This document shows, in pieces, positions 24,574 to 56,427 of a DNA stretch of 64,000 bases. A program made the position numbers and the translations under genes. The notes under the pieces are model-generated. The model had not been told where the DNA came from and ran no database searches. It saw only the letters and a program-made list of their open reading frames with translations. How positions within the stretch are numbered: the stretch's first letter is position 1; each line of letters begins with the position of its first letter. The stretch spans positions 10,471 through 74,470 of the forward strand of contig CANCET010000002.1 in the NCBI GenBank assembly GCA_947375105.1, read 5' to 3'. This stretch comes from Sphingomonadaceae bacterium (lineage in GTDB: Bacteria > Pseudomonadota > Alphaproteobacteria > Sphingomonadales > Sphingomonadaceae).

Positions 24574-24601
24574 CCCAAAGAGCGGGACGACGGACTAGAC
24601 C

Positions 24602-35973: not shown

Positions 35974-36000
35974 ACCTCTATTATATTTGGAGTTTTTCGA

Positions 36001-37179: not shown

Positions 37180-37184
37180 TCCCC

Positions 37185-39502: not shown

Positions 39503-40425
39503 GCAAGGTCATCATCACTTGCGCCGTCACCGGCGGCGCGCATACCCCGACCATGTCGGACGCCCTGCCCTGCACGCCGTCCGAGATTGCCGAGCAGTCG
39601 ATCGCGGCGGCCGAAGCGGGTGCAGCCATTCTACACCTTCACGCGCGCAATCCCGCCAACGGACAGCCCACCGGCGATCCGGCGATCTACGCGCAGTTCC
39701 TGTCGGTCATCAAGCAACAGACGGATGCCGTGGTGAACATCACCACGGGCGGTTCCGCGACCATGCCGCTGGCCGAGCGGCTGAAGGCGGCAGTGCAGTT
39801 CAAGCCCGAGATGTGCTCGCTCAACATGGGCTCGATGAACTTCGCGTTCTTCGGCGCAGCGGCGCGTATCAACACTTGGAAGCACGATTGGGAAGAGCCC
39901 TATGTCACGGGCTCGGACGACTTCATCTTCCGCAACACCTTCCGCGATATCGCAACGATCCTTGAGGTGATGGGCGAGGCTGGCACCAAGTTCGAGCACG
40001 AGTGCTACGATGTCAGCCACCTCTACAACCTGGCGCATTTCGTTGATCGGGGCCTGGTGAAGCCGCCATTCTTCATCCAGATGATTTTCGGCATTCTGGG
40101 CGGCATCGGCCCCGATCTCGAAAACCTGATGTTCATGAAATCGACTGCCGACCGCCTGTTTGGCCGCGACAATTTCCAGTGGTCGGTGCTCGCGGCCGGG
40201 CGTCACCAGATGCCGTTCCTCACACAAGCCGCGCTGATGGGCGGCAATGTCCGTGTCGGGCTGGAGGACAGCCTGTTCATCGAACGCGGCGTGCTTGCCG
40301 CCTCGAACGCGCAGCAGGTGGAAAAGATCGTGCGGATCATCCGCGAAATGGGCCATGAACCGGCGACCCCAACCGAAGCCCGCGCGATGCTGGGCCTCAA
40401 AGGCGGCGACAGGGTGGAGTTCTAG
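39499..40425 (+). CDS. BKACE / beta-keto acid cleavage enzyme (DUF849), copy 2
   Basis: IITCAVTG, ILHLHARNP, SLNMGSMNF, EHECYD, NVRVGLEDSL. Confidence 0.9.
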   Translation: MSKVIITCAVTGGAHTPTMSDALPCTPSEIAEQSIAAAEAGAAILHLHARNPANGQPTGDPAIYAQFLSVIKQQTDAVVNITTGGSATMPLAERLKAAVQFKPEMCSLNMGSMNFAFFGAAARINTWKHDWEEPYVTGSDDFIFRNTFRDIATILEVMGEAGTKFEHECYDVSHLYNLAHFVDRGLVKPPFFIQMIFGILGGIGPDLENLMFMKSTADRLFGRDNFQWSVLAAGRHQMPFLTQAALMGGNVRVGLEDSLFIERGVLAASNAQQVEKIVRIIREMGHEPATPTEARAMLGLKGGDRVEF

Positions 40426-40428
40426 GGT

Positions 40429-41205
40429 ATGGCGCGCACGATTGTAGACCTCTCGATCTACCTCGAAAACGACGTGATCTCCGATCCGCCACCCTACCAG
40501 CCCAAAATCGCTTACATCGACCACAAGACCTCGATACCCGATCTGGTCGGCTTCTTCCCGGGGCTGAAGCCCGAAGACCTGCCCGATGGCGAGGCTTGGG
40601 CAATCGAGAAGATCGAGCTGATCACGCACAACGGCACGCACCTCGATGCACCGTACCACTTCGCCTCGACGATGAATCGGGGTGAGCGCGCGATCACGAT
40701 CGACGAAGTACCGCTCGATTGGTGCTTCCAGCCCGGCGTGAAGCTCGATTTTACCGCCCTGCCCGATGGCTATGTGGTGACCGCCGCAGATGTCGAGGCA
40801 GAGCTCGCGCGCATCGGCCACACGCTCTCACCGCTGGAAATCGTCGTGGTGAATACGGCGGCGGGCAAGCGCTACGGGCAGGACGACTATGTCACCGCCG
40901 GCTGCGGCATGGGCTATGATGCGACGATGTACTTGCTCGAACGCGGCGTGCGGCTGACCGGCACCGACGGCTGGAGCTGGGACGCGCCATTCGTCCACAC
41001 GCGCGAGGCCTACGAGGCGACGGGCAATGCCGCCCTGATCTGGGAAGGCCACAAGGCGGGCCGCGATATCGGCTACTGCCACCTCGAGAAGCTGCACAAT
41101 CTGGAAGTGCTGCCCCCCACCGGCTTCACGATCGCCTGCTTCCCGATGAAAATCCGCGCCGCCTCGGCCGGCTGGACGCGCGCCGTGGCGATCTTCGAGG
41201 ATTAG
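40429..41205 (+). CDS. Cyclase-family metal-dependent hydrolase (kynurenine formamidase/isatin hydrolase fold), copy 1
   Basis: THNGTHLDAPYH, GTDGWSWD, HLEKLHNL. Confidence 0.88.
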   Translation: MARTIVDLSIYLENDVISDPPPYQPKIAYIDHKTSIPDLVGFFPGLKPEDLPDGEAWAIEKIELITHNGTHLDAPYHFASTMNRGERAITIDEVPLDWCFQPGVKLDFTALPDGYVVTAADVEAELARIGHTLSPLEIVVVNTAAGKRYGQDDYVTAGCGMGYDATMYLLERGVRLTGTDGWSWDAPFVHTREAYEATGNAALIWEGHKAGRDIGYCHLEKLHNLEVLPPTGFTIACFPMKIRAASAGWTRAVAIFED

Positions 41206-41882: not shown

Positions 41883-42653
41883 TCAATTCATCCAGTGTCC
41901 GCCGGTGACGTTGATCGCCTGTCCGGTCATGTAGGCGGCGCGGTCCGAGGCCAGAAAGGCGACGAGTTCGGCAATTTCACCAGGGGTTCCGGCGCGGCGC
42001 AGCGGGATCGCCTGAACCCGCGTGGCGACATCGGGCAGGCCCTGCTCGCGGTTCATTTCCTCGGCTTCGGCACGCATTTCGGTATCGACGATGATACCCG
42101 GACACACCGCGTTGATGCGGATGCCCAAGCTGCCGAACTCGCCCGCCAGGCTCTGCGTGAGGTTGATGATCGCAGCTTTTGTGGCGCCATAGGCCGCGTG
42201 GTTGGGCACGCCCTTCTTGCCCGTCCACGAAGAGACATTGACGATGGCCCCACTCCTGCGCGCGATCATAGCCGGCAGCACCGCCTGCGAAAAATGAAAC
42301 ACCCCGTCGAGATTGATCGCGAACATGCGCCGCCAGTCATCCTCGGTCACATCGAGAAAAGCCGCTGTGCGCAGGATGCCCGCGTTGTTCACCAGAATAT
42401 CGACCGGACCGAGTTCACCTACGATTGTCTCCACCCCGCGGATCACCTCGGCGCGGCTTGAAACGTCACCGGCGGCAACCGCGGCCCGCTGTCCGAGCGC
42501 GGTGATCACTTCAGCAGTGGCGCTGGCGCTGGCTGCGTTCGTATCGAAAAGGCCGACGTTCGCGCCGCTCATCGCTAGCCGCAGCGCAATGGCCCGGCCA
42601 ATGCCCGCGCCCGCGCCGGTCACCAGCGCCACCTTGTCTTTCAGATCATCCAT
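41883..42653 (-). CDS. SDR oxidoreductase
   Basis: MDDLKDKVALVTGAGAGIG, VNNAG, YGATK, NVTGG. Confidence 0.9.
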   Translation of the reverse strand: MDDLKDKVALVTGAGAGIGRAIALRLAMSGANVGLFDTNAASASATAEVITALGQRAAVAAGDVSSRAEVIRGVETIVGELGPVDILVNNAGILRTAAFLDVTEDDWRRMFAINLDGVFHFSQAVLPAMIARRSGAIVNVSSWTGKKGVPNHAAYGATKAAIINLTQSLAGEFGSLGIRINAVCPGIIVDTEMRAEAEEMNREQGLPDVATRVQAIPLRRAGTPGEIAELVAFLASDRAAYMTGQAINVTGGHWMN

Positions 42654-42665
42654 GCCCGTCCGCCT

Positions 42666-42697
42666 TACCAGTGGGTATTGATTTAACCCAGTGGGTT
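42666..42697. promoter_or_regulatory. Second candidate operator: two CCAGTGGGT-containing inverted repeats 20 bp apart
   Basis: TACCAGTGGGTA (42666-42677) and AACCCAGTGGGTT (42685-42697). Confidence 0.5.
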
Positions 42698-42706
42698 TTC
42701 TATGTT

Positions 42707-42747
42707 TCAACATATGTGTTGATTCGACCTTATGTCGAGCGCAAAAT
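42707..42747 (+). promoter_or_regulatory. Operator site D (42707-42722) overlapping a putative TTGATT-N17-CAAAAT promoter
   Basis: TCAACATATGTGTTGA; -35 at 42719-42724, -10 at 42742-42747. Confidence 0.68.
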
Positions 42748-42792
42748 GCGGCCCAAGCAGCGCCGGAAGAATTGATCGAAGGGATCTCAAGG

Positions 42793-44418
42793 ATGTCCGA
42801 GCCTGCCAGCGCTGCAATCAAGGCAGACTACGATGCTGTCGTGGTCGGCGCGGGCTTTGCCGGGCTCTACATGATCCACAAGCTGCGCGGCCTCGGCCTC
42901 TCGGTCCTCGCGTTCGAAGCGGGCAGCGGTGTCGGCGGAACGTGGTTCTGGAACCGCTACCCCGGCGCACGCTGCGACGTGTACAGCCTCGAATACTCCT
43001 ACTCGTTCGACGCAGGGCTGCAGCGAGAATGGGTCTGGAGCGAGCGCTATCCCGCGCAGGCTGAGATCCTGCGTTATATCGAGCACGTGGCCGACCGGTT
43101 CGATCTGCGCCGTGACATCCGCTTCAACACCCGTGTTGCTTGTGCGCACTATAACGAGCCCGCAAACCTCTGGAGCGTCGAGACGGAGACCGGCGAGGTC
43201 GTAACCGCTCGCTTCTGCATCATGGCCTCGGGTGCGCTCTCCGCCCCCCGCAAGCCCGACTTTGCGGGCCTCGATGACTTTGGGGGCAACTGGTATCACA
43301 CTGGGCACTGGCCGCACGAGCCGGTCGATTTTACCGGCCAGACTGTTGCAGTGATCGGCACGGGCTCCTCGGGCATCCAAGTCACGCCGATGGTCGCCCA
43401 GCAGGCAAAGCGCCTGTTAGTATTCCAGCGCACCCCGAACTTCAGCATCCCGGCCTGGAACCACCCGCTGCCCGATCACGTGCAGGACGCATGGAAGCGC
43501 GATGCCGCACAGCTACGGGCCAAAGCCAAGGCGACGAAATCAGGCGCACTCTATGAGTATGGCCAGCGCGGCGCATTCGAGGTGAACGACGAAGAGCGCC
43601 AGCGCGAGTTCGACGCACGCTGGGCGCGGGGCGGTGCCAATTTTACCCATGCGTTCAACGACCTGTTCAAGGACAAGGCAGCCAACGATCTCGCGGCAGA
43701 CTATGTACGCGGCAAGATCCGGGAAATCGTGAAAGACCCGGCCGTCGCGGCAAAACTGACCCCCACCGACCACGCTATCGGCACCAAGCGCATTTGTGTC
43801 GACACCGACTACTACGCGACCTTCAACCGCGAGAACGTAACGCTGGTCGATGCGCGCGAGACCCCGATCACCCGCATCACGCCGGCGGGCATTGAAACCT
43901 CTGGCGGCCAGTACGCGGTGGACAGCATCGTGTTCGCTACCGGATACGACGCTGTGACTGGCGCGCTCACCCGCATCGACATCCGCGGGCGCGGCGGCGT
44001 CTCGCTTGCGGAGAAATGGCAAGACGGGCCCAAGACCTATCTCGGCCTTATGGTCGCCGGTTTTCCCAACCTGTTCACGATCACCGGCCCTGGCAGCCCC
44101 TCGATCCTGACCAATGTGGTCATGGCGATTGAGCAGCACGTCGATTGGGTCGGCGATTGCCTTGCCTATATGGCAAGCCAAGCCGCAGCGACAATCGAGG
44201 CTGAACCCAAGGCCGAAGAAGACTGGGTGGACCACGTGCGCGAAGTGGCTGAGGCGACGCTGCATGTGCAGGCCAACAGCTGGTACATGGGTGCGAACAT
44301 CCCCGGCAAACCGCGCGTTATGCTGCCCTATGTCGGCGGACTGGGCGTCTATACCGGCATCTGCAACGACATTGCAGCCGATGGCTATCGCGGCTTTGCC
44401 ATGGCGCGCGGGGGCTGA
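42793..44418 (+). CDS. Type I Baeyer-Villiger monooxygenase (CHMO/PAMO-like)
   Basis: GAGFAG, GGTWFWNRYPGARCD, FGGNWYHTGHWP, GTGSSG, GTKRICVD, ATGYD. Confidence 0.94.
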   Translation: MSEPASAAIKADYDAVVVGAGFAGLYMIHKLRGLGLSVLAFEAGSGVGGTWFWNRYPGARCDVYSLEYSYSFDAGLQREWVWSERYPAQAEILRYIEHVADRFDLRRDIRFNTRVACAHYNEPANLWSVETETGEVVTARFCIMASGALSAPRKPDFAGLDDFGGNWYHTGHWPHEPVDFTGQTVAVIGTGSSGIQVTPMVAQQAKRLLVFQRTPNFSIPAWNHPLPDHVQDAWKRDAAQLRAKAKATKSGALYEYGQRGAFEVNDEERQREFDARWARGGANFTHAFNDLFKDKAANDLAADYVRGKIREIVKDPAVAAKLTPTDHAIGTKRICVDTDYYATFNRENVTLVDARETPITRITPAGIETSGGQYAVDSIVFATGYDAVTGALTRIDIRGRGGVSLAEKWQDGPKTYLGLMVAGFPNLFTITGPGSPSILTNVVMAIEQHVDWVGDCLAYMASQAAATIEAEPKAEEDWVDHVREVAEATLHVQANSWYMGANIPGKPRVMLPYVGGLGVYTGICNDIAADGYRGFAMARGG

Positions 44419-44419
44419 C

Positions 44420-46033
44420 ATGCAACCGCCCACCAGCCGAACTTTCCCGGAACTCCTGCGCGAACTGGCTGCCGTTGCGCCGGATCGGTGCGCGGTCATA
44501 GATGGCGCCGTCTCGGTCACTTACGCCAGCCTCGCGCAGCGCGCCCATTTGGTCACGAACGCGCTAAAAGGAGCAGGCGTAAAGCGCGGCGACCGGGTCG
44601 GTGTGCTCTTGTCGAACCGGATCGAATGGCTCGAGATCTTCTTCGGTGCGAGCGCGGCGGGCGCTGTCGTCGTGCCGATCAGCACCTGGTCCAAGCCCGC
44701 AGAGCTTGAATTCATTCTGAGCGACGGCGGTGTCTCGGTGCTGTTTGCGATGCCGTCTTCGGGCAAGGAAGACTTCTTTGCCGCGCTGAACATGCTGGTT
44801 CCCGAGGCTATCGAGCAGAATCAATGGGTCAGCGCGCGCCTGCCTGCTCTGCACCTGCTCGTTGCCATGGCAACCACCGCGCCCGGCGCGGGATGGTGCA
44901 CCCACAACGGGTTCTGCACCGCAGCGTCCGATATGCCGCTTGGCGACGGACCAGACCCGGCCGACGACGCGCTCATTCTCTACACTTCGGGCTCGACCAG
45001 CAAACCCAAGGCCGTCCGCCTTGCGCACGGCGCGCTGATCGAAAACGGTTTCAACATCGGCGGGCGCATGGGCCTCGCGGCCAACGACAGGGTATTTGTC
45101 TCGGTCCCGCTGTTCTGGGCCTATGGCTCAGCCAATGCGCTCCCCGCCGCAATGAGCCACGGCGCAGCGATCGTCCTGCAGGACCGGTTTGAGCCAGGCG
45201 GCGCGCTGGCGCTGATTGAGCAGCACCGCTGCACGGCAATCTACACCCTGCCGACAATGACCAGCGCGCTGATCGCACACGAGGACTTTGCTCTGGCCCG
45301 CACGGCCAGCCTCAGAACCGGGCTCACGATCGGCAGCCCGCAGGATGTGATGGCTGCGGCCACAGGGCTGGGCGCGGCACATATCTGCAACATCTACGGA
45401 TCGAGCGAGACCTGCGGCAATTGCTGCGTCACGCCGTGGGATTGGCCGCTGGACCGCCGCGCAGCTTGCCAGGGTCCGCCGCTCCCGGGTGTCAGCCTGC
45501 GGCTCGTCGATGCTGAAACCGGGGCAAAGGCCGAACCGGGCCAGCCCGGGCTCATCGAGGTGACGGGCTACCTCATGGCTGGCTACGGGGGGCAGAGCGC
45601 CAGCCACAACGCCGCCGCTTTCACAGCGGACGGGTGGTATCGCACCGGAGACCTTGGTCAGTTGTCTGATGATGGAGACCTGATCTTCCTTGGTCGCGCA
45701 ACGGAGATGATCAAGCGCGCCGGGATCAATGTCTCCCCCGCTGAAGTCGAGGACGTGCTGCTGCAGCATCCGGCAGTGGCGCAAGTCGCCGTGGTCGGCG
45801 CGCCCGATCCTGCGCGCGGCGAGATCATCGTCGCGTTCGTGGTCACAACGAAGCCCGCAACCGAAGCCGAGCTCATCGCGCATGCCCGGACGATTGCATC
45901 GACCTACAAGGTGCCCGACCGGATCGTGTTCCGAACGAAACTTCCCGCGACCGCCACCGGCAAGTTGCAGCGCCAGCCGCTCAAGGCGGAAGCCGCAGCC
46001 CTCAGCGCAAAGGATAAAGCCCATGTCGCGTGA
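44420..46033 (+). CDS. Acyl-CoA synthetase (AMP-binding)
   Basis: YTSGSTSKPK, YGSSE, YRTGD, EMIKRAGINVSP, GKLQR; start at MQPPTSR. Confidence 0.9.
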   Translation: MQPPTSRTFPELLRELAAVAPDRCAVIDGAVSVTYASLAQRAHLVTNALKGAGVKRGDRVGVLLSNRIEWLEIFFGASAAGAVVVPISTWSKPAELEFILSDGGVSVLFAMPSSGKEDFFAALNMLVPEAIEQNQWVSARLPALHLLVAMATTAPGAGWCTHNGFCTAASDMPLGDGPDPADDALILYTSGSTSKPKAVRLAHGALIENGFNIGGRMGLAANDRVFVSVPLFWAYGSANALPAAMSHGAAIVLQDRFEPGGALALIEQHRCTAIYTLPTMTSALIAHEDFALARTASLRTGLTIGSPQDVMAAATGLGAAHICNIYGSSETCGNCCVTPWDWPLDRRAACQGPPLPGVSLRLVDAETGAKAEPGQPGLIEVTGYLMAGYGGQSASHNAAAFTADGWYRTGDLGQLSDDGDLIFLGRATEMIKRAGINVSPAEVEDVLLQHPAVAQVAVVGAPDPARGEIIVAFVVTTKPATEAELIAHARTIASTYKVPDRIVFRTKLPATATGKLQRQPLKAEAAALSAKDKAHVA

Positions 46034-46904
46034 TGCCTGGGGTCGCTGGGGCGAAGCCGACGAGGTCGGCGCGCTCAATCTCGTCGGCACGAGCGAAGTG
46101 CTCGGCGCTACCGGCCTCGTCCGGCAGGGCCGGGTCGTGAGCCTCGCACAGCCGCTGTCGAAGAAGACCCCGGTTCCCAGCAACCGCACCGGCCTCCTCC
46201 ATTTCATGGACCGCGACGGCGGCGACTATGCGGCCGGAGCACGCATTTCCAACGGCTTCCAATTTGCCGACGACAGCGTGGTCATGCCGCTCCACATCGG
46301 CACGCATATCGACGCGCTGTGCCATGTGTGGACTGAGGATCAGCTCTACAACGGCCATCCCGGATCGGGCACGAACAGCACGCACGGCGCGAAAAAGTGC
46401 GGCGTGGAAAAGCTGCCGCCCATCGTCACGCGCGGGTTGCTCCTTGATGTGGCGGCGCTGCATGAAGCGCCTCTGCCATTCGGCTATGCGATCGGGGTGG
46501 ACGAAATGAAAGAGGCCGCCAGCCGCGCAGGAGTGACTCCCGCGATTGGCGATGCCGTTCTGATCCGAACGGGATGGCAGGAAAATCAGGCGGGCAAGCC
46601 TGCACAGACGGTCGATTTCAACGAGGAGCCGGGCATAGACGTTGAGGCTGCGCTCTGGCTTGCCGAGGCCGGCGTTTCGCTCGTCGGCGCGGACAACTAT
46701 GCGATCGAGGCCATGCCCTTTCCCGCAGGCACAACCTTCCCCGTCCATCAGCGCCTGATCCGCGACTTCGGCATTCCGCTGCTTGAAGGCCTCGTGCTGC
46801 AGGACTTCGCCGCGCTCGGTGTGCCCGAGTTCCTGTTCGTCGCCGCGCCGCTGCCGATCGTCGGTGGAACCGGCAGCCCGATCACCCCGCTGGCGATTTA
46901 TTGA
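46023..46904 (+). CDS. Cyclase-family metal-dependent hydrolase, copy 2
   Basis: WGRWGEADEVGALN, LHIGTHIDALCH, GADNYAIE, LLEGLVL. Confidence 0.87.
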   Translation: MSRDAWGRWGEADEVGALNLVGTSEVLGATGLVRQGRVVSLAQPLSKKTPVPSNRTGLLHFMDRDGGDYAAGARISNGFQFADDSVVMPLHIGTHIDALCHVWTEDQLYNGHPGSGTNSTHGAKKCGVEKLPPIVTRGLLLDVAALHEAPLPFGYAIGVDEMKEAASRAGVTPAIGDAVLIRTGWQENQAGKPAQTVDFNEEPGIDVEAALWLAEAGVSLVGADNYAIEAMPFPAGTTFPVHQRLIRDFGIPLLEGLVLQDFAALGVPEFLFVAAPLPIVGGTGSPITPLAIY

Positions 46905-46908
46905 TCCC

Positions 46909-47934
46909 ATGACCGTGGACGCCCATGAGCCGGATAGGGCCGCACGGCAGGTCGCCGATGGGCTGGCGCAGCTTGTGCGCCATGCGATCCCCTCGGCGCA
47001 GGATATCGCCTTCACGGGCCTCACCCGCTCCGCCGGCGGCCTCAGTCGGGAGAACTGGTCGTTTGATGCCAGCTGGCACGATGCGGAAGGAGGCCACACA
47101 CATCGGCTGATGCTGATGCGCGATGCCAAAGGCACTCTGCTGAAGACCGAACGCAGCCGCGAGTTCGATGTGCTGAGGGCACTGCAAGGCAGCCCCGTGG
47201 CGGCACCGGCGGTGTTCTGGATGGATCCCGATGGGCAGTTCCTCGGCGCGCCCTCGCTGATCATGGAGCGCGTTTCAGGCCGCTGCGACTATATGGTGCT
47301 GAATGGCGCACAGCCATTGAATGAGCGGCTGGAACTCGCACATGCCTTTCTGCAACTGCTGACCGATATTCAGACGATCGACTGGCAGACACGCGGCCTC
47401 GGGCCCAGCCTCGGCGTACCTGAAGGCTCGCCGGCCCAGATCGTGCTCGATGAGTGGGAGACGGAGTATCGCCGTGTGCAACTAGAGCCCCATCCGGAGC
47501 TCGATTATGTTTTGGCGTGGATGCGCCGCGCGGCCCCGCAAGCGCAAGCCATTGTTCTCGTCCACGGCGATTTCAAACCGGGCAACGCGCTGATCGAGGG
47601 CACACGGATCACCGCCAAGCTCGATTGGGAGACCGCGCATCTGGGTGATCCGCTCGAAGACCTCGGCTGGATCACCAATCCCGTGCGGCGGCGCGAACAC
47701 CAGATCCCCGGTCATTGGGAACGTGCGCAGATCGTCGAAGCCTATACCCGCCTGACCGGCCGCGCAGTGGGCGACGCTGCTCTGACATGGTGGAACGTGT
47801 TCTCGTGCTGGAAGCTGGCGGTGATCCAGCTGACGGCCGTCAACGAGTTCGTCTCGGGCCGCTACAACCGCGTGTTCCAGACTCCCTCGTGGCTCTTCCG
47901 CCCCATGCTCCAGATGATGGAGCGCGCGACATGA
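46909..47934 (+). CDS. APH-fold phosphotransferase (LvaA / ACAD10-11 kinase-like), copy 2
   Basis: AGGLSRENW, REFDVL, HGDFKPGN, LDWE, GDPLEDLGW. Confidence 0.88.
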   Translation: MTVDAHEPDRAARQVADGLAQLVRHAIPSAQDIAFTGLTRSAGGLSRENWSFDASWHDAEGGHTHRLMLMRDAKGTLLKTERSREFDVLRALQGSPVAAPAVFWMDPDGQFLGAPSLIMERVSGRCDYMVLNGAQPLNERLELAHAFLQLLTDIQTIDWQTRGLGPSLGVPEGSPAQIVLDEWETEYRRVQLEPHPELDYVLAWMRRAAPQAQAIVLVHGDFKPGNALIEGTRITAKLDWETAHLGDPLEDLGWITNPVRRREHQIPGHWERAQIVEAYTRLTGRAVGDAALTWWNVFSCWKLAVIQLTAVNEFVSGRYNRVFQTPSWLFRPMLQMMERAT

Positions 47935-48398
47935 GGCCCTCAGTCGAAGAGCAGCTACTGGGCACGTGCCACATTCTCGAAACCGTCGTCGCGCCGGCTG
48001 TGGCCGAGCCCTTCGCACGCACCATTCTCGACAGCCTCATCGCGAACTTGCGCATGGTCACCGAAGCGCTGCCCGCCGTGCCGGGCTTCCTGCGCTGGGA
48101 CAATGCGGCGACGCAGGACCTGCTGCACAAGCTGCGCAGCGAGCTGCCTTCCGATCTCGCCCGGCGCATCGACACTGCGCTGGAAACCCCCGAACCCGAC
48201 ATGCTCGACAGCGCTGCGCAGACCGCGCGCAACGACTTGCTGCGCGCTATGCTCGCTGAAGCCGTCTGCAGCCCGGATCTGGCCCCCGATCTGCACCGTG
48301 CCATTCAGCAACACATGATCGCTCGCGCCTCACGCGCACCGATGCGTTACGTGCCGACCGCCGTTCCCCCCGCACCCACGCCCACCACGAGACCGTAA
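47931..48398 (+). CDS. Small helical protein coupled to the kinase (LvaB-like), copy 2
   Basis: ATGA overlap with the kinase; N-terminal EQLLGTCHILETVVAPAV. Confidence 0.6.
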   Translation: MRPSVEEQLLGTCHILETVVAPAVAEPFARTILDSLIANLRMVTEALPAVPGFLRWDNAATQDLLHKLRSELPSDLARRIDTALETPEPDMLDSAAQTARNDLLRAMLAEAVCSPDLAPDLHRAIQQHMIARASRAPMRYVPTAVPPAPTPTTRP

Positions 48399-48402
48399 AC
48401 CC

Positions 48403-49530
48403 ATGCTTACCGCGCTTGACGATACGCTTTGGCACCAGTTGCCGACAACATTCGATCACGTCTGGACCAGCGACCCCCGGTTCTTCGACCGCTACTGGTT
48501 CGCGATCTATTCGGGCGATGGGCGGGTCGCGATCCAGATCACCATGGGCGCCTATCGCAACATGAACGTGCTGGATGCCGGGGCGGTGATGATCGTCGAT
48601 GGCAAACAGTACAACCTGCGTGTCTCGCGCTCGCTCAATGGCAGCGTGGAGACGGTCTGCGGCCCGATCCGCATCACGCCCATCGAGGCACTGCAGACGC
48701 TCGATATCGTGATCGAGCCCAGCGAAGGCGTGCTTCACGGCCGCATCCGCTGGGACGGTGTGGAGCCCGCGCACGAGGAGCATCCCCACTACACTCGCCT
48801 GCAAAGCCGCACGGTCGAGGACTATCGTCGCTTCGATCAGATCGGCGTGGCCAGCGGCTATCTGGAGGTCGAGGGCCAGCGTGTCGAGATCGACAAATGG
48901 TGGTCCTGCCGCGACCATTCCTGGGGCGTGCGGCGCGGCATGGGCGTGCCCGAACCAGTCACCGGCCCCAAGCTTCCCCTCTCCGAGAAAGGCCACGTCA
49001 TGGCCTTCCTGTTCTTCTCCACCACCGCCGTGAGCGGCAGCCTGCTTTTCTCCGGGCGCGGCGATGATACGCCCTATACCACCGGCGTGCTCACCTTGCG
49101 CGAGACTGAGACGGCGCACGATGTGACCCAGATCGCGCTTGAGGTCGATCTTCACGAAGGCACCCGCCGCTTCCGCCGCGCCGCCGTCGTTGCACAGTTG
49201 GAGGGCGCCGGCGAACTTCGGCTGGAGCTCGATGCGCAGGGCGCCTCGATCGCGATGCAAGGCCTTGGTTACAGCGGCGGCTTCAACGATGGGCGCGGGC
49301 TCGGCGCGTGGCGGGGCGAGACCTGGCTCGAAACCGATGTGTGGGATGTGTCACACCCCGCCAAGGTGATCTATCCGGACGGTACCGAGAAGGTTCACTG
49401 GCACCGCATCCAGCCCGTCTCCATCGCGGCAAGCCTGAACGGGGAAACCAGCCAAGGCACCGGCAGCATGACGCTGACCATTGCGGGGCAGCTTCCCGCG
49501 CATCTGCAAGTCCAGTCCGCTTCCATCTAG
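48403..49530 (+). CDS. Uncharacterised predicted tandem beta-barrel protein (tocopherol cyclase/AttH-like), copy 2
   Basis: FFDRYWF, GPIRITPIE, SGYLEVEGQRVEID, RDHSWGVR. Confidence 0.65.
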   Translation: MLTALDDTLWHQLPTTFDHVWTSDPRFFDRYWFAIYSGDGRVAIQITMGAYRNMNVLDAGAVMIVDGKQYNLRVSRSLNGSVETVCGPIRITPIEALQTLDIVIEPSEGVLHGRIRWDGVEPAHEEHPHYTRLQSRTVEDYRRFDQIGVASGYLEVEGQRVEIDKWWSCRDHSWGVRRGMGVPEPVTGPKLPLSEKGHVMAFLFFSTTAVSGSLLFSGRGDDTPYTTGVLTLRETETAHDVTQIALEVDLHEGTRRFRRAAVVAQLEGAGELRLELDAQGASIAMQGLGYSGGFNDGRGLGAWRGETWLETDVWDVSHPAKVIYPDGTEKVHWHRIQPVSIAASLNGETSQGTGSMTLTIAGQLPAHLQVQSASI

Positions 49531-49546
49531 ACCGCAGGAGACCCGC

Positions 49547-50761
49547 TTGTTCGCATGCGTGCTTGCCGAAGTGCTGCGCCCCGGCGACCGCGTGGTCGTG
49601 GGCCAGGCGACGAGCGAGCCGGTGGGGCTGGTAGAGGACCTGTTTGCGGCAGCAACGCATATCGATGATCTGTCCGTATTCTGCGGCTACTCGCTGAACC
49701 CGGCATGGAAGGACGCAGTGCCGGATACGCTGCAGGTCATTTCCTATTGCGGGCTCGGCGCGATAGGTGCGCTCACTCTGCATGGCCGCGCCAAGGTCAT
49801 CCCCTTTGCCATGTCGCAATTGAGCGCCGCGCTGGCTGCGCGCACACTGCCGGTGGATGTGGTGCTGCTGCAAGTCTCCCCCGCCGATGCCGATGGCTAT
49901 CACAGCCTCGGACTTGCCGCCGACTATGTCTGGGAAGCGGCGCAACTGGCGCGGGTCGTTGTCGCCGAAGTCAATGCGCGCGTTCCGATAACCCGCAGCC
50001 AGTGCCGCCTCCACTGCAGTCAGATCGTTATCGCACGCACATGCGATACTCCGCTGCCCGAAGTGCGGCCTGAACCGGTTGGCGAAGTGCAGACGCGTGT
50101 TGCGCGCGAAGTGGCAAAGCTGGTCCCCGATGGCGCGACCGTGCAAATCGGCATTGGCAAGCTTTCCGATGCGATAGCCCATGCGCTGCGGGATCGCCGC
50201 GGCCTCAAGGTGCGATCAGGCATGGTGGGGGACTGGTTCCCCTCGCTGGTGGCTGCGGGGGCGATCGACACCAGCACGCCGGATGCCTGCCTCGCCTCGC
50301 TCGCAGTGGGCAGCAGCGCGCTTTACGATTGGCTGGACTGCAGCAATCTCCTGGGCTTTGCGCTCCCCGAACACCTGGCTGTGCCCGTCCGCGATTCTCC
50401 GTTTATGGCGATTAACTCGGGCATCGAGGTGGACTTGCGCGGCCAGGTCAACGCCGAATTCCTGGGGCACCGCTATGTCGGTGCCTCGAGCGGGCAACCA
50501 GACTATTTCCGGGCCGCGCAGCGTTCCGCGGGTGGCCTCGCAATCCTTGCTTTGCCCTCAGCCAACGAGCGCGGTGATGTGAGCCGCATCGTCCCGCGCC
50601 TCGCGAGCGGCTACGTCACCTCCGCACAGAGCGACGTGGATGTGATCGTCACCGAACAGGGCATAGCCGATATCCGCGCCACCGATTTTGGCGAACGCCG
50701 CCGCCGGATAACGGCAATTGCCGATCCGCGCATGCGCGGCGCACTCAGCCCCGAGGAATGA
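49547..50761 (+). CDS. Acetyl-CoA hydrolase/transferase family protein, copy 2 (catalytic Glu apparently replaced by Gly)
   Basis: DGATVQIGIG, INSGIEVDLRGQ, DVDVIVTEQG; RSGM where HSEM is expected; TTG start after AGGAG inferred. Confidence 0.82.
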   Translation: MFACVLAEVLRPGDRVVVGQATSEPVGLVEDLFAAATHIDDLSVFCGYSLNPAWKDAVPDTLQVISYCGLGAIGALTLHGRAKVIPFAMSQLSAALAARTLPVDVVLLQVSPADADGYHSLGLAADYVWEAAQLARVVVAEVNARVPITRSQCRLHCSQIVIARTCDTPLPEVRPEPVGEVQTRVAREVAKLVPDGATVQIGIGKLSDAIAHALRDRRGLKVRSGMVGDWFPSLVAAGAIDTSTPDACLASLAVGSSALYDWLDCSNLLGFALPEHLAVPVRDSPFMAINSGIEVDLRGQVNAEFLGHRYVGASSGQPDYFRAAQRSAGGLAILALPSANERGDVSRIVPRLASGYVTSAQSDVDVIVTEQGIADIRATDFGERRRRITAIADPRMRGALSPEE

Positions 50762-52002
50762 ACTGCATGGCAACCGCATCACTGGCGCCCGTCCCTCCGC
50801 ACGTTCCCGCTGATCGCATTATCGATTTCGACGTCTACAACCCTGCCGGCATTGAGGTGGGCTTTCATCAGGCATGGATGCGGCTCCACGGCGATGGCGT
50901 GCCCGATCTGGTCTGGACCCCGCGCAACGGCGGCCACTGGATCGCGACACGCGGTCATCTCATCCGGCAGTTCCTCAATGAGCCGGAAAACTTCTCTGCC
51001 CGGGTGATGATCGTGCCGAAAGAGGCGGGGCTTGAACACAAGCTGGTTCCCATGAACATGGACCCGCCCGAGCATGGCCCCTATCGCCGGGTGCTTAATC
51101 AGGGACTTGGGCCGCGCGAAATCCGCAACATCGAAGGCGATATCCGTGCCGCTGCAATCGCGCTCATCGAAGCCTTCGCGCGGGACGGCAAAGTCGATTT
51201 CTGCGCCGAATACGCCAATGTGTTCCCGATCAAGGTGTTCCTCGCCTTCTCGCGCCTGCCGCTCAGTGATGCGCCGCTGCTTACCCGCTTTTCCAATTCC
51301 ATGCTCCGCCCTGAAGGCACGACACCGGAGGAGAAGGCGGCTTCCATGGCAAACGCCAACGCCGGGTTCTTTGCCTATATCGCGCCGACCGTGGCCGAGC
51401 GGCGGGCCAATCCGGGCGACGACTGGATCAGCCTGATCATCCACAGCGAGGTGAACGGCCAACCGGTCACCGAATACGAAACGCTCGCGATGATCTCGCT
51501 CGTACTGCTCGCCGGGCTGGATACCGTGGTGAACTTCCTGCCATTCTGCATGGATTATCTCGCACGCCATCCCGAACTCGTGGCGCTGCTGCACGCCGAT
51601 CCAGCCAGAATCCCGGCGCGGGTCGATGAACTGTTCCGCCGCTTTCCGGTCGTCTCGCAGGCGCGGTTGGTGACGCAGGATGTGAGTTATGATGGCGTGA
51701 CGCTGAAGGCGGGCGAGATGGTGCTCATCCCATCCACCCTCCACGGCACCGACCCCCGCGAAAACGCCGATCCGCTGACGGTCGATTTCGGCCGAAAAAA
51801 GATCTCGCACTCCACCTTCGGCGGCGGCGCGCATATCTGCGCAGGGATGCATCTCGCCAATCTGGAGATCATCATCACGCTGCAGGAATGGCTGAAGCGC
51901 ATTCCCGAATTTCGGGTTGCGGAGGGCTTCCAGCTCGTCGCGCACTCGGGTGTCGTCGCGCAAGTCGAACGGCTCGATCTGGAGTGGAACCCTGCGCCTT
52001 AA
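50758..52002 (+). CDS. Cytochrome P450, CYP101 family (P450cam/CYP101D/CYP101B-like)
   Basis: PPHVP..DFDVYNP, DLVWT..NGGHWIATRG, MDPPEH, LAGLDTVVNFL, ELFR, FGGGAHICAG. Confidence 0.93.
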   Translation: MNCMATASLAPVPPHVPADRIIDFDVYNPAGIEVGFHQAWMRLHGDGVPDLVWTPRNGGHWIATRGHLIRQFLNEPENFSARVMIVPKEAGLEHKLVPMNMDPPEHGPYRRVLNQGLGPREIRNIEGDIRAAAIALIEAFARDGKVDFCAEYANVFPIKVFLAFSRLPLSDAPLLTRFSNSMLRPEGTTPEEKAASMANANAGFFAYIAPTVAERRANPGDDWISLIIHSEVNGQPVTEYETLAMISLVLLAGLDTVVNFLPFCMDYLARHPELVALLHADPARIPARVDELFRRFPVVSQARLVTQDVSYDGVTLKAGEMVLIPSTLHGTDPRENADPLTVDFGRKKISHSTFGGGAHICAGMHLANLEIIITLQEWLKRIPEFRVAEGFQLVAHSGVVAQVERLDLEWNPAP

Positions 52003-52613
52003 GCGGTCGGGGTTTGCACACCCGCCATCGCCAGGATCAGCCCTGCAACTTCGTCTGCCAGCGCTTCGAGCGAGAGGCGACCGTGCGGCCGGTACCAGAC
52101 ATAAGCCCAGCTCACGAGCCCGCCGATCGACAGCGCCGCGACATCGGGATCGTCGAGATGGAACTCGCCCGCATCGACCCCCGCTTGGAGCAGCCCGACC
52201 AGTTTCCGGTCAAAATCGCGCCTGAGCGCACTAAGCCGCTCGAAATCGGCAGGCTCAAGGCTCTTTTCCTCGCGCGTAAGGATGGCGATATAACGCTGGT
52301 TGCTCAGCACCGCCGTCAGGAAACCGCGCGAGAGCATCCTCAGTTTTTCGGTCGGAGACACTTCGGCTGCGAGTGCGGCCTCCATCGCCACCAGCGAAGC
52401 GCTGACCCCGCGCGTGCAGATATCGGCGAGCAGTTCGGCCTTCGACTTGAAGTGATTGTAGATGAACGGCTTGGTGACGCCCATGGTCTCCGCGACGGCT
52501 TCGAGCGTGGTTTTCTCATAACCGCGATCGTAAAACAGCTGCGCCGCCGCCTCGACCGTGCGCTCGCGCTTCAGCGCAGTCACTTCATCCCGGATCGTCG
52601 GAAAGCCTACCAT
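51999..52613 (-). CDS. TetR-family regulator (KstR2-like C-terminal domain), last gene of the caiB-BVMO operon
   Basis: HTH GYEKTTLEAVAETMGVTKPFIYNHFKSK; SWAYVWYRP; start inferred. Confidence 0.9.
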   Translation of the reverse strand: MVGFPTIRDEVTALKRERTVEAAAQLFYDRGYEKTTLEAVAETMGVTKPFIYNHFKSKAELLADICTRGVSASLVAMEAALAAEVSPTEKLRMLSRGFLTAVLSNQRYIAILTREEKSLEPADFERLSALRRDFDRKLVGLLQAGVDAGEFHLDDPDVAALSIGGLVSWAYVWYRPHGRLSLEALADEVAGLILAMAGVQTPTA

Positions 52614-52614
52614 C

Positions 52615-53913
52615 TCAGACCGGTCGCTTAACGCCATTGGCGGCATAGTCCAGAGCCAGCCGCTTGCGATAACGGCGCGGATCAAGCTCCAGCCCATAGC
52701 GCGGGCTATCGGGAAATTGGCTCTGTGCCCAGGCGCGTTCGGTCTCGATCGCCGCGAGCATATCCTGCTCGCTCGGTCGCCGGATCGCGCCGGTTGCCAT
52801 GGCGGCGATATAGGCGGCCTGATCGTCCATCATTCGGATATTGCTGCCCCCAGTCACATCGAAGTAGCCGATGAAGAACAGCCCCGGCACACTGGGATGC
52901 GCCACCCGGTTGTAGAGCGCAACATGGGTCGTCGCTTCCTCGACCGGCGAGATCGCTTCGGGCAAGAACGGAATGGCCGTGTTGTAACCGGTCGCGGCTA
53001 TGATTGCGTCGAACCTGTCTTCGCTGCCATCGCTGAACTGGACAGTCGTGCCGCTTACGGCCTTGATCCCCGGTTTCACGGTTACCCGGCCCCATGCAAT
53101 CTGCGAAATCAGCGTCGGATGGCTGATCGGGTGCGTACGCGTCTTGGGTGTGCGGAAACCCCACTGTTCCATGCGACCATGAAACATCCTGGTCAGCGTG
53201 GTGCGGATCCACACGCGCACCTGCCATGGCAGGAATGGCCGCTCCAGCTTCAGCAGCGTACGCGAGTTCGGCACGCCGAACATCATGCGCGGCATGATCA
53301 ACACGGGCGACCGGGCAGACAGGACCGTGTGCTCGGTAACCGTACAGATGTCGGCCGCAATATCGACACCGCTATTGCCCGGCCCGATCACCAAGACGCG
53401 CTTGTCGGCATAGGGACCCGGCACCCGGTAGGCATGGGCGTGGGCATATTGCCCGGTATAGCCCTCGATCTGAGGTGGATGGCGCGGCACGCTCTGGTGT
53501 CCGCTGGCGACCACGACCCCGTCGAAAGTCTCGGTTGTTCCGTCTTCCAGTTCGATGCGGGACTTGCCCTCCGCCGGTACGATCTGCTTCACGCGCGCCT
53601 TGAAACGGATCCGGCGCGCCAGATCGAAATGATCGGCATAACGCGCAAAATAGCGGCTCATCTCCGCGTGATCGGGATAGAGCGGAGCGTTATCAGGAAA
53701 CGGAAAATCGGCGAGGCTGCTGACTTTGGCTTCGGAATTGATGTGGAGCGATTTGTAGGCCGGGCTCATCCCGCTGTCGTTGTTGTAGACCCACAGCCCG
53801 CCGACCTGCGATCCCGCCTCGAACAGGGTCACCTCGATGCCCTGCTGCGTCAGATAGCGCGCGGCGCAAAGCCCGCCCGCGCCCGCGCCGACGATGGCAA
53901 AGTGGCGGCTCAT
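52615..53913 (-). CDS. Flavin-containing monooxygenase (FMO-like, class B)
   Basis: GAGAGG, GGLW, YKSLHINS, YTGQYAHAHAYR, GPGNSG, ATGY; start at MSRHF. Confidence 0.88.
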   Translation of the reverse strand: MSRHFAIVGAGAGGLCAARYLTQQGIEVTLFEAGSQVGGLWVYNNDSGMSPAYKSLHINSEAKVSSLADFPFPDNAPLYPDHAEMSRYFARYADHFDLARRIRFKARVKQIVPAEGKSRIELEDGTTETFDGVVVASGHQSVPRHPPQIEGYTGQYAHAHAYRVPGPYADKRVLVIGPGNSGVDIAADICTVTEHTVLSARSPVLIMPRMMFGVPNSRTLLKLERPFLPWQVRVWIRTTLTRMFHGRMEQWGFRTPKTRTHPISHPTLISQIAWGRVTVKPGIKAVSGTTVQFSDGSEDRFDAIIAATGYNTAIPFLPEAISPVEEATTHVALYNRVAHPSVPGLFFIGYFDVTGGSNIRMMDDQAAYIAAMATGAIRRPSEQDMLAAIETERAWAQSQFPDSPRYGLELDPRRYRKRLALDYAANGVKRPV

Positions 53914-54831: not shown

Positions 54832-56427
54832 TCAGTCTCCACTCGTTATCTGAAAGCCGGCGTAGCCGCTGGCAGCGACTTCGTCGCAAATCGCCCGGTA
54901 GCGGCCGATGCCGCCGACAAAGGGCATAAAAACACGGGGTTTTCCGGGAATATTGGCCCCGAGATACCAGGAGTTCGCCTGCACGAAGAGCGTCTCAGCC
55001 GCTGCTTCGTTGACTTGCTGGACCCAAGCGTTTTCGGCATCGGGCTCGGGCTCGATCCGCGAGGCTCCGGTGCGAGTCAGATGCTGGATGCACTCGGCGA
55101 TCCAGTCGATGTGCTGCTCGATACCCACCACCATGTTGACCAGCACCGAGGGGCTGCCGGGGCCGGTCACGATGAACATGTTAGGGAAGTCCGCCACCAT
55201 CAGCCCCAAATAATTGCGCGGCCCATCGGCCCATTTGGCGCTGAGCGCCGCGCCATGGCGGCCCCGAATATCGATCTGCGCCAGCGCCCCAGTCAATGCG
55301 TCGTAGCCCGTCGCGCAGACGATAACGTCGACCGGCAGCACGGCGTCGGCCATGTGGATGGCATCCCCGCTAATCGCCGTGACGGGCGTCGCCTGCAGAT
55401 CGATCAGCATGACATGGGGCTGATTGTAGGTCTCGTAGTAGTCCGAGCCGACGCAAATGCGCTTGGCCCCCAGCGGATAGCCGCGCGGGCAAAGCATTTC
55501 CGCCGTCTTCGGATCGGTGACCAGTTCGCGGATGCGAGCATGGACGAAATCGGCGGCGGTCTGGTTGGCCGCCGGATCGGTCATGATATCGCTGAACGCA
55601 TGGACGAAGTTGACCCCGCCCAGCTCCCACCGGCGGCGATATTCCGCCTCGCGCGCCTCGGCACTGACGGACAGCGCCGGGGTCTGGCTGAAATCATAGA
55701 GCGTGCCGACCTGCCGCGCCTGCGCCCGGTAGTCGGCATAGGCTGCCTTCCACGCGGCCTGTTTCTCACCGCTCAGCGGCTGATTGCGCGCTGGCACCAC
55801 GAAGTTGGGCGTGCGCTGCAGAACCACAAGCCGCTCCGCCGAGCGGGCGATCTGCGGAATGGCCTGCACGCCCGACGATCCCGTGCCGATGACGGCGACA
55901 GACTTGCCGGCAAAGTCCACGCCGTCACGCGGCCATGCTCCGGTGTGCAGGATCTGCCCCGCAAACGTCTCGATCCCCGGGACATCCGGCAGGCGCGAGG
56001 CTGAGAGCGACCCGCTCGCCATGATGCAGAAGCGCGCGGTGACCTCGCCGCCGCGATCCGTATGCACATGCCAGCGGTCCGCCGCCGGATCGAAATGGGC
56101 CGAGGTGACCCGCTTTCCGAACGCAATCAGCGGTCGCAGGGCGAACCGGTCGGCCACATGGTGAAGGTAGGCGAGGATCTCGTCCTGCTGCGCATAGCGC
56201 TCCGACCAGACCCATTCCTGCTGGAGCGGATCATCGAACGAATAGCTGTATTGCAGGCTTTCAACATCGCAGCGCGCGCCGGGATAGCGGTTCCAGTGCC
56301 ACACCCCGCCGACATCGTTGGCAGCCTCGAATGCGTGGACGGCAAGCCCCAGCCCGCGCAGCTTGTGCAGCGCATAGAGCCCGGCGAACCCGGCGCCGAC
56401 GACAACGACATCCAGTTCGCGCGTCAT
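54832..56427 (-). CDS. Type I Baeyer-Villiger monooxygenase (CHMO/PAMO-like)
   Basis: GAGFAG, GGVWHWNRYPGARCD, FAGQILHTGAWP, GAKRICV, ATGYD. Confidence 0.94.
   Translation of the reverse strand: MTRELDVVVVGAGFAGLYALHKLRGLGLAVHAFEAANDVGGVWHWNRYPGARCDVESLQYSYSFDDPLQQEWVWSERYAQQDEILAYLHHVADRFALRPLIAFGKRVTSAHFDPAADRWHVHTDRGGEVTARFCIMASGSLSASRLPDVPGIETFAGQILHTGAWPRDGVDFAGKSVAVIGTGSSGVQAIPQIARSAERLVVLQRTPNFVVPARNQPLSGEKQAAWKAAYADYRAQARQVGTLYDFSQTPALSVSAEAREAEYRRRWELGGVNFVHAFSDIMTDPAANQTAADFVHARIRELVTDPKTAEMLCPRGYPLGAKRICVGSDYYETYNQPHVMLIDLQATPVTAISGDAIHMADAVLPVDVIVCATGYDALTGALAQIDIRGRHGAALSAKWADGPRNYLGLMVADFPNMFIVTGPGSPSVLVNMVVGIEQHIDWIAECIQHLTRTGASRIEPEPDAENAWVQQVNEAAAETLFVQANSWYLGANIPGKPRVFMPFVGGIGRYRAICDEVAASGYAGFQITSGD

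Follow-up and report, generated by a model that had tools for sequence, protein, structure and literature searches.

A stretch of 64,000 nucleotides from a Sphingomonadaceae bacterium (assembly GCA_947375105.1, contig CANCET010000002.1, positions 10,471 to 74,470), referred to here as the window, contains at positions 46909-49530 three consecutive genes coding for a kinase, a small partner protein and a lyase. These genes rather probably constitute an ATP-dependent dehydration system, in which the kinase with its partner, and then the lyase, would act on a hydroxyl group of an acyl-CoA supplied by a Baeyer-Villiger monooxygenase (BVMO)/hydrolase route. The different parts of this proposal are not equally firm. 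The chemistry itself, phosphorylation of a hydroxyl by kinase and partner and elimination of the phosphate by the lyase to give an alkene, is predicted from sequence with high probability. That the substrate is an acyl-CoA is somewhat probable from the gene context. The view that the hydroxyl is tertiary or otherwise non-oxidisable, resulting from BVMO insertion and opening by the hydrolase, is tentative, and we are slightly more doubtful than confident about it. The three genes are the following:

46909-47934, + strand: APH-fold small-molecule kinase, 341 amino acids (aa) (Pfam APH PF01636, E 3e-28)
47931-48398, + strand: six-helix small partner, 155 aa, without Pfam or NCBIfam family
48403-49530, + strand: lyase of the 25-phosphosteroid-lyase/Rv3169 family, 375 aa, two-barrel AttH-like fold (NCBIfam Rv3169_fam)

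The lyase passes the threshold of the NCBIfam family Rv3169_fam (NF053593.1) with 254 bits over residues 2-354 (cut-off 150), and its match to Pfam DUF7065, taken alone, reaches 23 bits, under the 27-bit cut-off. In a phmmer search of the PDB, the N-terminal half matched 25-phosphosteroid lyase (25-PSL; entries 9fzn, 9g2i and 9g4c) with an E-value of 4e-29, and a profile of 45 family members aligned with 9fzn over the full length of the protein (residues 2-368 to 5-361, E 3e-84). The AlphaFold model of the lyase has a pLDDT of 91.4; Foldseek gave E 2e-25 against 9g4c and TM-scores of 0.81-0.84 to 9g4c and 9fzn, and the next-best folds, those of decalin-forming pericyclases, kievitone hydratase and AttH, reached a TM-score of about 0.5 at most. 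Kievitone hydratase and similar folds are associated with carbocation-type chemistry. One of the matched 25-PSL entries contains phosphate and the alkene product. An earlier reading of this DNA from its letters alone (the original prediction) had described the protein as an AttH-like barrel, which is right at the level of the fold; 25-PSL, the one phosphate-eliminating steroid lyase known so far, is a much closer, functionally defined relative.

The residues of the lyase that are identical in 9fzn are D6, H11, Q12, D24, R26, D29-R30, N53, Q69, R73, S75, E126, R143, Q146, R170-D171, S173-W174-G175, R177 and G289-Y290; H172 aligns to Arg. Most polar residues invariant in the family, including RD.SWG.R and several arginines, are common to 25-PSL and constitute a candidate phosphate-binding/catalytic set. 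The family comprises about 1,144 representatives at 50% clustering, and every orthologue of 70-98% identity is annotated as "hypothetical protein". Sequence and model thus support the lyase as a full-length relative of 25-PSL, predicted by homology to eliminate phosphate. A role of the barrel as an eliminase of the LvaC type, that is, of the acyl-CoA dehydrogenase (ACAD) type, was ruled out, since no ACAD domain is present and the protein folds like 25-PSL. In Sterolibacterium, 25-PSL completes the ATP-dependent dehydration of the tertiary C25 alcohol in cholesterol-derived steroids, the APH-type kinase 25-HSK having phosphorylated this alcohol before 25-PSL acts (PMC8449060; PMC11061730). The 25-HSK reaction is reversible, tertiary phosphoesters having a high phosphoryl-transfer potential at about the level of ATP (PMC8449060).

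In the kinase, the catalytic loop HGDFKPGN (residues 219-226, 47563-47586) and the metal-site motif DWE (residues 239-241, 47623-47631) are both intact. Its best solved relatives are 3dxp (E 9e-20), 9o56 (2e-18), 9fsg (1e-12) and the kinase domain of ACAD11 (7e-12), and resistance-kinase structures score lower (MphH 3e-8, hygromycin kinase 3e-5). The entry 9fsg is an APH-like protein deposited together with 25-PSL, and is probably the structure of the 25-HSK kinase. The top NCBIfam resistance model, APH(3'), gives 37 bits against a cut-off of 205, and all APH/Mph models remain far under their cut-offs. By these comparisons the kinase appears closer to metabolic than to antibiotic-resistance kinases. 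The intact kinase motifs and the homology of the lyase to 25-PSL support the earlier proposal that a phosphoester made by the kinase is eliminated by the barrel protein.

The gene for the small partner starts within the stop codon of the kinase gene (ATGA). None of 17 orthologues of the protein matches a Pfam family, and its model, composed of six helices (pLDDT 91), found no fold match in the PDB (best E 0.79). The protein is homologous to the 167-aa partner encoded in another triad of the window, at 23602-26319 (hhalign 95.9%, E 6e-9). It had been called "LvaB-like" after the levulinate operon protein LvaB (PP_2792). For this comparison DUF6285, which we assume from gene context to be the probable LvaB-type family, served as a proxy for the LvaB family in place of the authentic LvaB sequence. 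The small partners aligned with DUF6285 at an hhalign probability of 5-15% (E 0.002-0.008), with the N-terminal helices in register. The name therefore suits the architecture, and a homology to the LvaB family would be tentative at most. A row of genes on a Thermus plasmid, coding for an ACAD, an APH kinase, a 116-aa DUF6285 protein and a histidine phosphatase, has the Lva-type layout. In the genome from which the window comes, contig C3 (31062-32276, + strand) contains an APH kinase and a DUF6285 domain in one open frame of 501 aa, and kinase-DUF6285 frames of 449-491 aa are present in several related genomes; the C3 frame is probably a natural fusion of a kinase with an LvaB-type partner.

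A locus search built on an alignment of 12 closer lyase sequences returned 80 related loci, in which kinase, partner and lyase show the same order and strand wherever the flank suffices. The carriers belong to four phylum- or class-level groups, namely Sphingomonadales, many Burkholderiales (among them Piscinibacter sakaiensis 201-F6, Ramlibacter, Rhodoferax and Polaromonas), Actinomycetota (Pseudonocardia, Nocardioides and others) and Gammaproteobacteria. Out of 73 loci, most have a 4-nt overlap between the kinase gene and the partner gene, and the partner is typically separated from the lyase by -1 to +4 nt. The invariance of order and strand in the 80 loci indicates that the neighbourhood of the three genes is not due to chance. 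It has also to be considered whether the kinase could be a drug-resistance enzyme or an unrelated phosphotransferase with coincidental neighbours. The protein does belong to the Pfam APH family, and Rv3168, the Mycobacterium tuberculosis APH-family gene next to Rv3169, is treated in reviews on aminoglycoside kinases and on mycobacterial drug resistance. However, the low score of the APH(3') model, an order and a coupling with the lyase that do not vary across the four groups, and surroundings that are catabolic everywhere render such an explanation extremely improbable. A resistance kinase was accordingly discarded as an annotation, on the basis of the NCBIfam models and the catabolic surroundings.

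The original prediction had spoken of a triad. The three-gene core is real, but the conserved unit consists of at least four genes, with the CoA-transferase-like gene, and often of six, with the genes for a ligase and a cyclase-family hydrolase. At 69% identity or more, nearly every locus has the CoA-transferase homologue next after the lyase, and a Rhodococcus opacus plasmid carries in a row a ligase fragment, a cyclase (48%), a transferase homologue (40%), a kinase (44%), a partner and a lyase; both observations indicate that the functional unit exceeds the triad. Cyclase orthologues with 57-78% identity are close to the cassette in Proteobacteria. Since the CoA ligase and the CoA-transferase homologue accompany the cassette across phyla, including Proteobacteria and Rhodococcus, the acyl-CoA context proposed earlier is plausible.

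In the window, the three genes belong to a series of eight on the + strand at 42793-52002. The list and order of these eight genes, as originally predicted, are borne out by the coordinates of the open reading frames and by Pfam and NCBIfam families. The remaining genes of the series and the features at its borders are:

42793-44418, + strand: type I Baeyer-Villiger monooxygenase (Pfam FMO-like/Pyr_redox_3)
44420-46033, + strand: AMP-forming acyl-CoA ligase (Pfam AMP-binding, E 6e-70, and AMP-binding_C)
46023-46904, + strand: cyclase-family (PF04199) metal-dependent hydrolase (Pfam, E 1e-26)
49547-50761, + strand: Glu-less homologue of 4-hydroxybutyrate CoA-transferase, acetyl-CoA hydrolase/transferase family (Pfam/NCBIfam, match to 3d3u)
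50758-52002, + strand: CYP101-type cytochrome P450 (Pfam/NCBIfam), its start overlapping the preceding stop
41883-42653, - strand: short-chain dehydrogenase/reductase (SDR) oxidoreductase, 256 aa from ATG 42653, divergent (Pfam adh_short, E 2e-62)
42654-42792, no strand: divergent promoter region (sequence read directly)
51999-52697, - strand: TetR-family regulator, convergent on the operon end (TetR_N and TetR_C_24)

The spacings between the eight genes are, in order, +1, -11, +4, -4, +4, +16 and -4 nt, in a window of about 63% G+C. The CoA-transferase-like gene most likely starts at TTG 49547, which is preceded by AGGAG. A motif scan and alignments found the expected catalytic motifs intact in the scanned operon proteins, except for the catalytic Glu of the CoA-transferase homologue. 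The scan for terminator-like sites gave 7, compared with 6.6 in shuffled sequence, that is, no excess, and the promoter counts were likewise indistinguishable from those of shuffled sequence.

The BVMO carries the fingerprint FxGxxxHxxxW(P/D) as FGGNWYHTGHWP (43279-43314), located between the Rossmann motifs GAGFAG and GTGSSG. Its nearest solved relatives are steroid monooxygenase (STMO, 4aos) and phenylacetone monooxygenase (PAMO, 1w4x), with E-values of about 1e-195, followed by OTEMO and CHMO at about 1e-138. A block of BVMO, ligase and cyclase is kept in all Sphingomonadales loci with sufficient upstream flank, and a BVMO orthologue (64-66%) is located downstream of the cassette in some Rhodoferax loci. 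In Piscinibacter, a luciferase-like monooxygenase and a flavin reductase, not a BVMO, precede the ligase and cyclase genes. In most Burkholderiales loci the cassette lies amid genes for an ACAD, an SCPx-type thiolase with DUF35, a family III CoA-transferase, an enoyl-CoA hydratase, NMO and TctC. The link between the cassette and a BVMO, on which the original prediction relied, is thus consistent in Sphingomonadales and in a few Rhodoferax loci, but not elsewhere. The BVMO is lineage-specific and the P450 accessory.

The ligase contains the motif YTSGSTSKPK (44981-45010); it matches no NCBIfam model at cut-off, and its solved relatives offer no hint about the substrate. The cyclase-family hydrolase has its metal motif HxGTHxDxxxH as HIGTHIDALCH (46293-46325), and its solved relative 5ibz, which is uncharacterised, gives no substrate hint either. 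The family includes isatin hydrolase, kynurenine formamidase and the Mn-dependent C-C hydrolase dihydrophloroglucinol cyclohydrolase, and a literature search tying cyclase-family proteins to lactonases found nothing relevant among the papers listed. As the family holds C-N and C-C ring hydrolases, the protein is a candidate ring- or ester-opening enzyme, and the role of lactone hydrolase first given to it is a guess.

The CoA-transferase homologue aligns over its full length with the AbfT-type protein 3d3u (E 2e-58). At the site of the catalytic Glu it has a Gly (codon 50219-50221), RSGM aligning to HTEM/HSEM of 3d3u and 3eh7. About 43 orthologues all share this Gly; in the Rhodococcus copy the residue is Thr. 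Because the Glu is replaced, the usual ping-pong mechanism is closed to the protein, which is not to be annotated as a functional CoA-transferase of that type. Its initial description as "CoA-transferase-like" holds for the full-length homology, but the catalytic Glu is absent in all orthologues. The window contains two paralogues of 4-hydroxybutyrate CoA-transferase, at 13426-14667 and 49547-50761, which are about 34-38% identical and have Gly at the Glu site in both cases (HTGLIGDG and RSGMVGDW). This pair of Gly-bearing paralogues points to a functional Glu-less subfamily of CoA-transferase homologues.

Sequence comparison places the P450 in the CYP101 family. The best solved relatives are CYP101D2 (E 4e-145), then CYP101D5, CYP101D1 and P450cam (E 1e-121), and the loop with the Cys ligand reads FGGGAHICAG (51817-51846). 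A P450 is present in only 4 related loci, and the two closest relatives, with lyases of 95-97% identity, have none; the original prediction had placed hydroxylation by the P450 at the start of its pathway, but the P450 cannot define the pathway. On plasmid pDK3 of Rhodococcus sp. DK17, a distant version of the cassette comprises a P450, the lyase, a ligase, an enoyl-CoA hydratase, an SDR, the kinase, the partner and a P450 reductase.

These P450 genes are relevant to a different proposal, in which the P450 directly makes a free tertiary alcohol for kinase and lyase, after the model of S25DH, 25-HSK and 25-PSL on the cholesterol side chain. Overall, an unactivated C-H would be desaturated, and the ligase and the CoA enzymes would act only later. 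The sole characterised relatives, 25-HSK and 25-PSL, do use a free steroid alcohol, the P450 gene is translationally coupled in this operon, and P450 and reductase genes flank the distant cassette of pDK3. However, not only is the P450 absent from the two closest relatives and from most loci, but the most faithful companions of the cassette are the CoA ligase and the CoA-transferase homologue, and acyl-CoA enzymes dominate the Burkholderiales contexts. We therefore regard a free alcohol as an unlikely substrate.

In the acyl-CoA dehydration system that we favour, the kinase, with its obligatory small partner, would phosphorylate a hydroxyl group intractable to ordinary dehydrogenases or hydratases, and the lyase of the 25-PSL family would expel the phosphate, leaving a C=C bond. 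Because of the near-ATP energy of a tertiary phosphoester, the kinase step should be reversible, so that the lyase would have to pull the reaction; this gives a rationale for a tight coupling of kinase and lyase, perhaps in a physical complex. The substrate would be an acyl-CoA bearing a tertiary or gamma/delta hydroxyl. A tertiary centre is favoured because the known substrate of 25-PSL is an unactivated tertiary phosphoester and related folds are tied to carbocation chemistry. The SDR and the CYP101-type P450 may furnish a ketone from a terpenoid-like or alicyclic compound, and the BVMO would place an oxygen beside the more substituted carbon of this ketone, either free or CoA-bound, as in the case of OTEMO, a precedent that allows the ligase to act before the BVMO. 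Opening of the lactone or ester so formed would fall to the cyclase-family hydrolase, and the alkene product would be passed on to enzymes of the beta-oxidation type.

Several facts weigh against this proposal. The lyase is only 23-24% identical to 25-PSL, and the kinase is no nearer to ACAD11 than to 9fsg. BVMO and P450 genes are missing from most of the loci that bear the cassette. STMO and PAMO, the relatives of the BVMO, act on open-chain ketones, so an ester is as likely a product as the lactone, and the preference first given to a ring ketone converted into a lactone is not sustained. The characterised members of the cyclase family cleave amides or a cyclic beta-diketone, and we know of no lactonases among them. 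Moreover, 25-HSK and 25-PSL act on a free steroid, not on a CoA ester, and their genes are unlinked (PMC8449060), so that the homology of the lyase is silent on a CoA-ester substrate. Finally, 25-HSK works without a small partner.

A route of the LvaAB/ACAD10-11 type for secondary 4-hydroxyacyl-CoAs, for instance those derived from gamma-lactones, with the barrel replacing the flavin-dependent LvaC/ACAD eliminase, would also account for an acyl-CoA substrate. The relationship of the kinase to the kinase domain of ACAD11, the presence of a homologue of 4-hydroxybutyrate CoA-transferase as companion, and the overlap of partner and kinase genes, which resembles the position of LvaB beside LvaA, speak for it. 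However, flavin-dependent ACAD10/11 eliminases act via the activated alpha position, whereas an enzyme of the 25-PSL type works without flavin, and the single substrate known for it is a tertiary phosphoester that is not activated; a secondary phosphate would be chemically much harder to eliminate in this manner. Furthermore, the similarity of the small partner to DUF6285 stays at the low hhalign probability given above. This route appears even less likely than the one that uses a free alcohol.

The dehydration of an acyl-CoA with a tertiary or gamma/delta hydroxyl might be generalised. In this wider and rather doubtful form, the six genes (ligase, cyclase, Glu-less transferase homologue, kinase, partner and lyase) would serve generally, and without flavin, to channel tertiary or gamma/delta hydroxy acids derived from lactones or esters into beta-oxidation, as a bacterial counterpart of LvaABC and ACAD10/11 with a carbocation-type elimination. 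Kinase, partner and lyase would form a channelling complex, and the Glu-less homologue would have a new activity, such as shielding the hydroxyacyl-CoA from relactonisation or a CoA-dependent opening of lactones.

With respect to the borders of the operon, Sphingomonadales loci have in equivalent position an SDR orthologue with 72-87% identity, and at the operon end a TetR orthologue with 63-92% identity. The SDR is a candidate for the conversion of an alcohol into a ketone, and the TetR protein encoded at 51999-52697 probably regulates the operon. A palindrome, AACCCAGTGGGTT (42685-42697), and a second near copy, CCAGTGGGT, were spotted by eye in the divergent region, although an inverted-repeat search of this region found none; among the related loci, only the closest relative (L007) has a copy, with one mismatch, about 110 bp upstream of the BVMO gene. 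The pair could conceivably be a putative TetR operator.

This type of lyase was found in none of 200 other Sphingomonadales species genomes sampled, 32 of which have another member of the family, and its identity to betaproteobacterial copies is 76-80%. Both facts suggest a horizontal spread of the cassette among freshwater bacteria. Most of the members in those 32 genomes score in the bit-score range of a further paralogue, encoded in the window's own genome on contig C103 (2531-4788, - strand). This paralogue, the third of the lyase family, shows 37% identity in the N-terminal half. It lies directly behind an APH kinase, the small partner being absent, and an enolase is two genes away. Three of the related loci (L029, L038 and L074) are titled as metagenome-assembled genomes of Akkermansia muciniphila, Bordetella parapertussis and Klebsiella pneumoniae; judged by the genes that they contain, they match freshwater Burkholderiales or Gammaproteobacteria, and these species labels are probably mis-assigned.

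The other triad of the window has a different gene order:

23602-26319, + strand: first triad of the window, coding for lyase (DUF7065 and DUF7064), kinase and small partner, in that order (Pfam)

It shares all three families with 46909-49530, the two kinases being 28% identical. Its pair of kinase and small partner recurs in other genomes, seven times in one of them; these seven pairs (genome G095, loci L087 and L090-L095), some with a lyase alongside, are in a genome of the same family as that of the window and represent a remarkable expansion of the cassette.

There are four or five BVMO/flavin-monooxygenase paralogues in the window (32775-34136, 42793-44418, 53266-53841, 54838-56436 and 62683-63999), several of which adjoin esterases or SDRs in related loci, and the window also contains several CoA ligases, a pyrroloquinoline quinone (PQQ) alcohol dehydrogenase and TonB receptors. 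Upstream of the eight genes, an operon at 35053-41205 codes for a 3-hydroxyacyl-CoA-dehydrogenase-like protein, an ACAD, a CoA ligase, a tandem SnoaL protein, a BKACE protein (39499-40425) and a second cyclase-family protein (40429-41205), and this block is syntenic in related Sphingomonadales. The BKACE protein passes the NCBIfam equivalog for 3,5-dioxohexanoate:acetyl-CoA acetone transferase (517 bits vs 430). The combination of cyclase, BKACE and dehydrogenase is reminiscent of the anaerobic phloroglucinol pathway (DPGC, TAL, TfD; PMC10470551); this sphingomonad is an aerobe. Judged by their sequences, the monooxygenase paralogues, the CoA ligases, the PQQ alcohol dehydrogenase and the TonB receptors jointly represent a putative large island for the catabolism of alicyclic or terpenoid ketones.

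Neither ordinary dehydrogenases nor beta-oxidation can take tertiary alcohols and gamma/delta-hydroxy acids any further, and such compounds arise whenever BVMOs or P450s attack branched terpenoids, steroids, naphthenic acids or pollutants of a similar kind. To our knowledge, only LvaABC, ACAD10/11 and the anaerobic 25-HSK/25-PSL solve this problem by phosphorylation and elimination. If our proposal is true, the cassette extends the solution of 25-PSL to aerobic, CoA-dependent catabolism. Its carriers are common inhabitants of fresh water and soil, among them the cultured Piscinibacter sakaiensis 201-F6, Ramlibacter (such as sp. CGMCC 1.61873), Rhodococcus opacus (such as DSM 44186), Pseudonocardia and Nocardioides; Sphingobium faniae is a further cultured carrier. 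Three unannotated protein families would also gain a testable function, namely the Rv3169/DUF7065-DUF7064 family, including Rv3169 of M. tuberculosis, the family of small partners and the Glu-less AbfT-like family. A literature search found no published study of the orthologue group, of the small partner, of the Glu-less transferase homologue or of a link to Baeyer-Villiger or CoA-dependent catabolism. The original prediction knew of no described pathway that links BVMO ring expansion to kinase-dependent dehydration; chemistry of this kind nevertheless has precedents in 25-HSK/25-PSL, LvaABC and ACAD10/11, and NCBIfam already has a name for the lyase family.

The proposed system can be compared with four known ones. 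With 25-HSK/25-PSL of Sterolibacterium denitrificans it shares an APH-fold kinase, a lyase of the same family and, as predicted, an ATP-dependent dehydration via a phosphoester. However, 25-HSK and 25-PSL are encoded by unlinked genes, lack a kinase partner and act on the tertiary alcohol of a free steroid in an anaerobic, molybdenum-dependent pathway, whereas the operon described here has three translationally coupled genes, accompanied by a CoA ligase, a Glu-less transferase homologue and oxygenases, in an aerobe.

The LvaA/LvaB/LvaC proteins of the Pseudomonas putida levulinate operon and the mammalian ACAD10/ACAD11 also involve an APH-fold kinase acting on a hydroxyacyl-CoA beyond the reach of beta-oxidation, and the loss of phosphate gives an enoyl-CoA. 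As in the window, the LvaABC system has a kinase with a small, essential partner and a CoA ligase in the operon. The eliminase of LvaABC and ACAD10/11 has the acyl-CoA-dehydrogenase fold, whereas this operon has no ACAD and uses a 25-PSL-like protein with the AttH fold.

Rv3168 and Rv3169 of M. tuberculosis are, by gene number, adjacent genes of the APH family and of the Rv3169 family, whose cut-off the lyase of the window passes; no function of this pair is described in the literature titles and abstracts searched. The pair presumably has no small partner, ligase or CoA-transferase homologue, and would be nearer to the kinase-lyase pair of contig C103. The camphor pathway of P. putida, with P450cam, a dehydrogenase, a CoA ligase and OTEMO, a type I BVMO that works on a CoA ester, shares with this operon a CYP101-type P450, a dehydrogenase, a ligase and a type I BVMO. 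However, the camphor pathway has no kinase or lyase step, and in the operon at 42793-52002 the BVMO is nearer to STMO and PAMO and the P450 is dispensable in close relatives.

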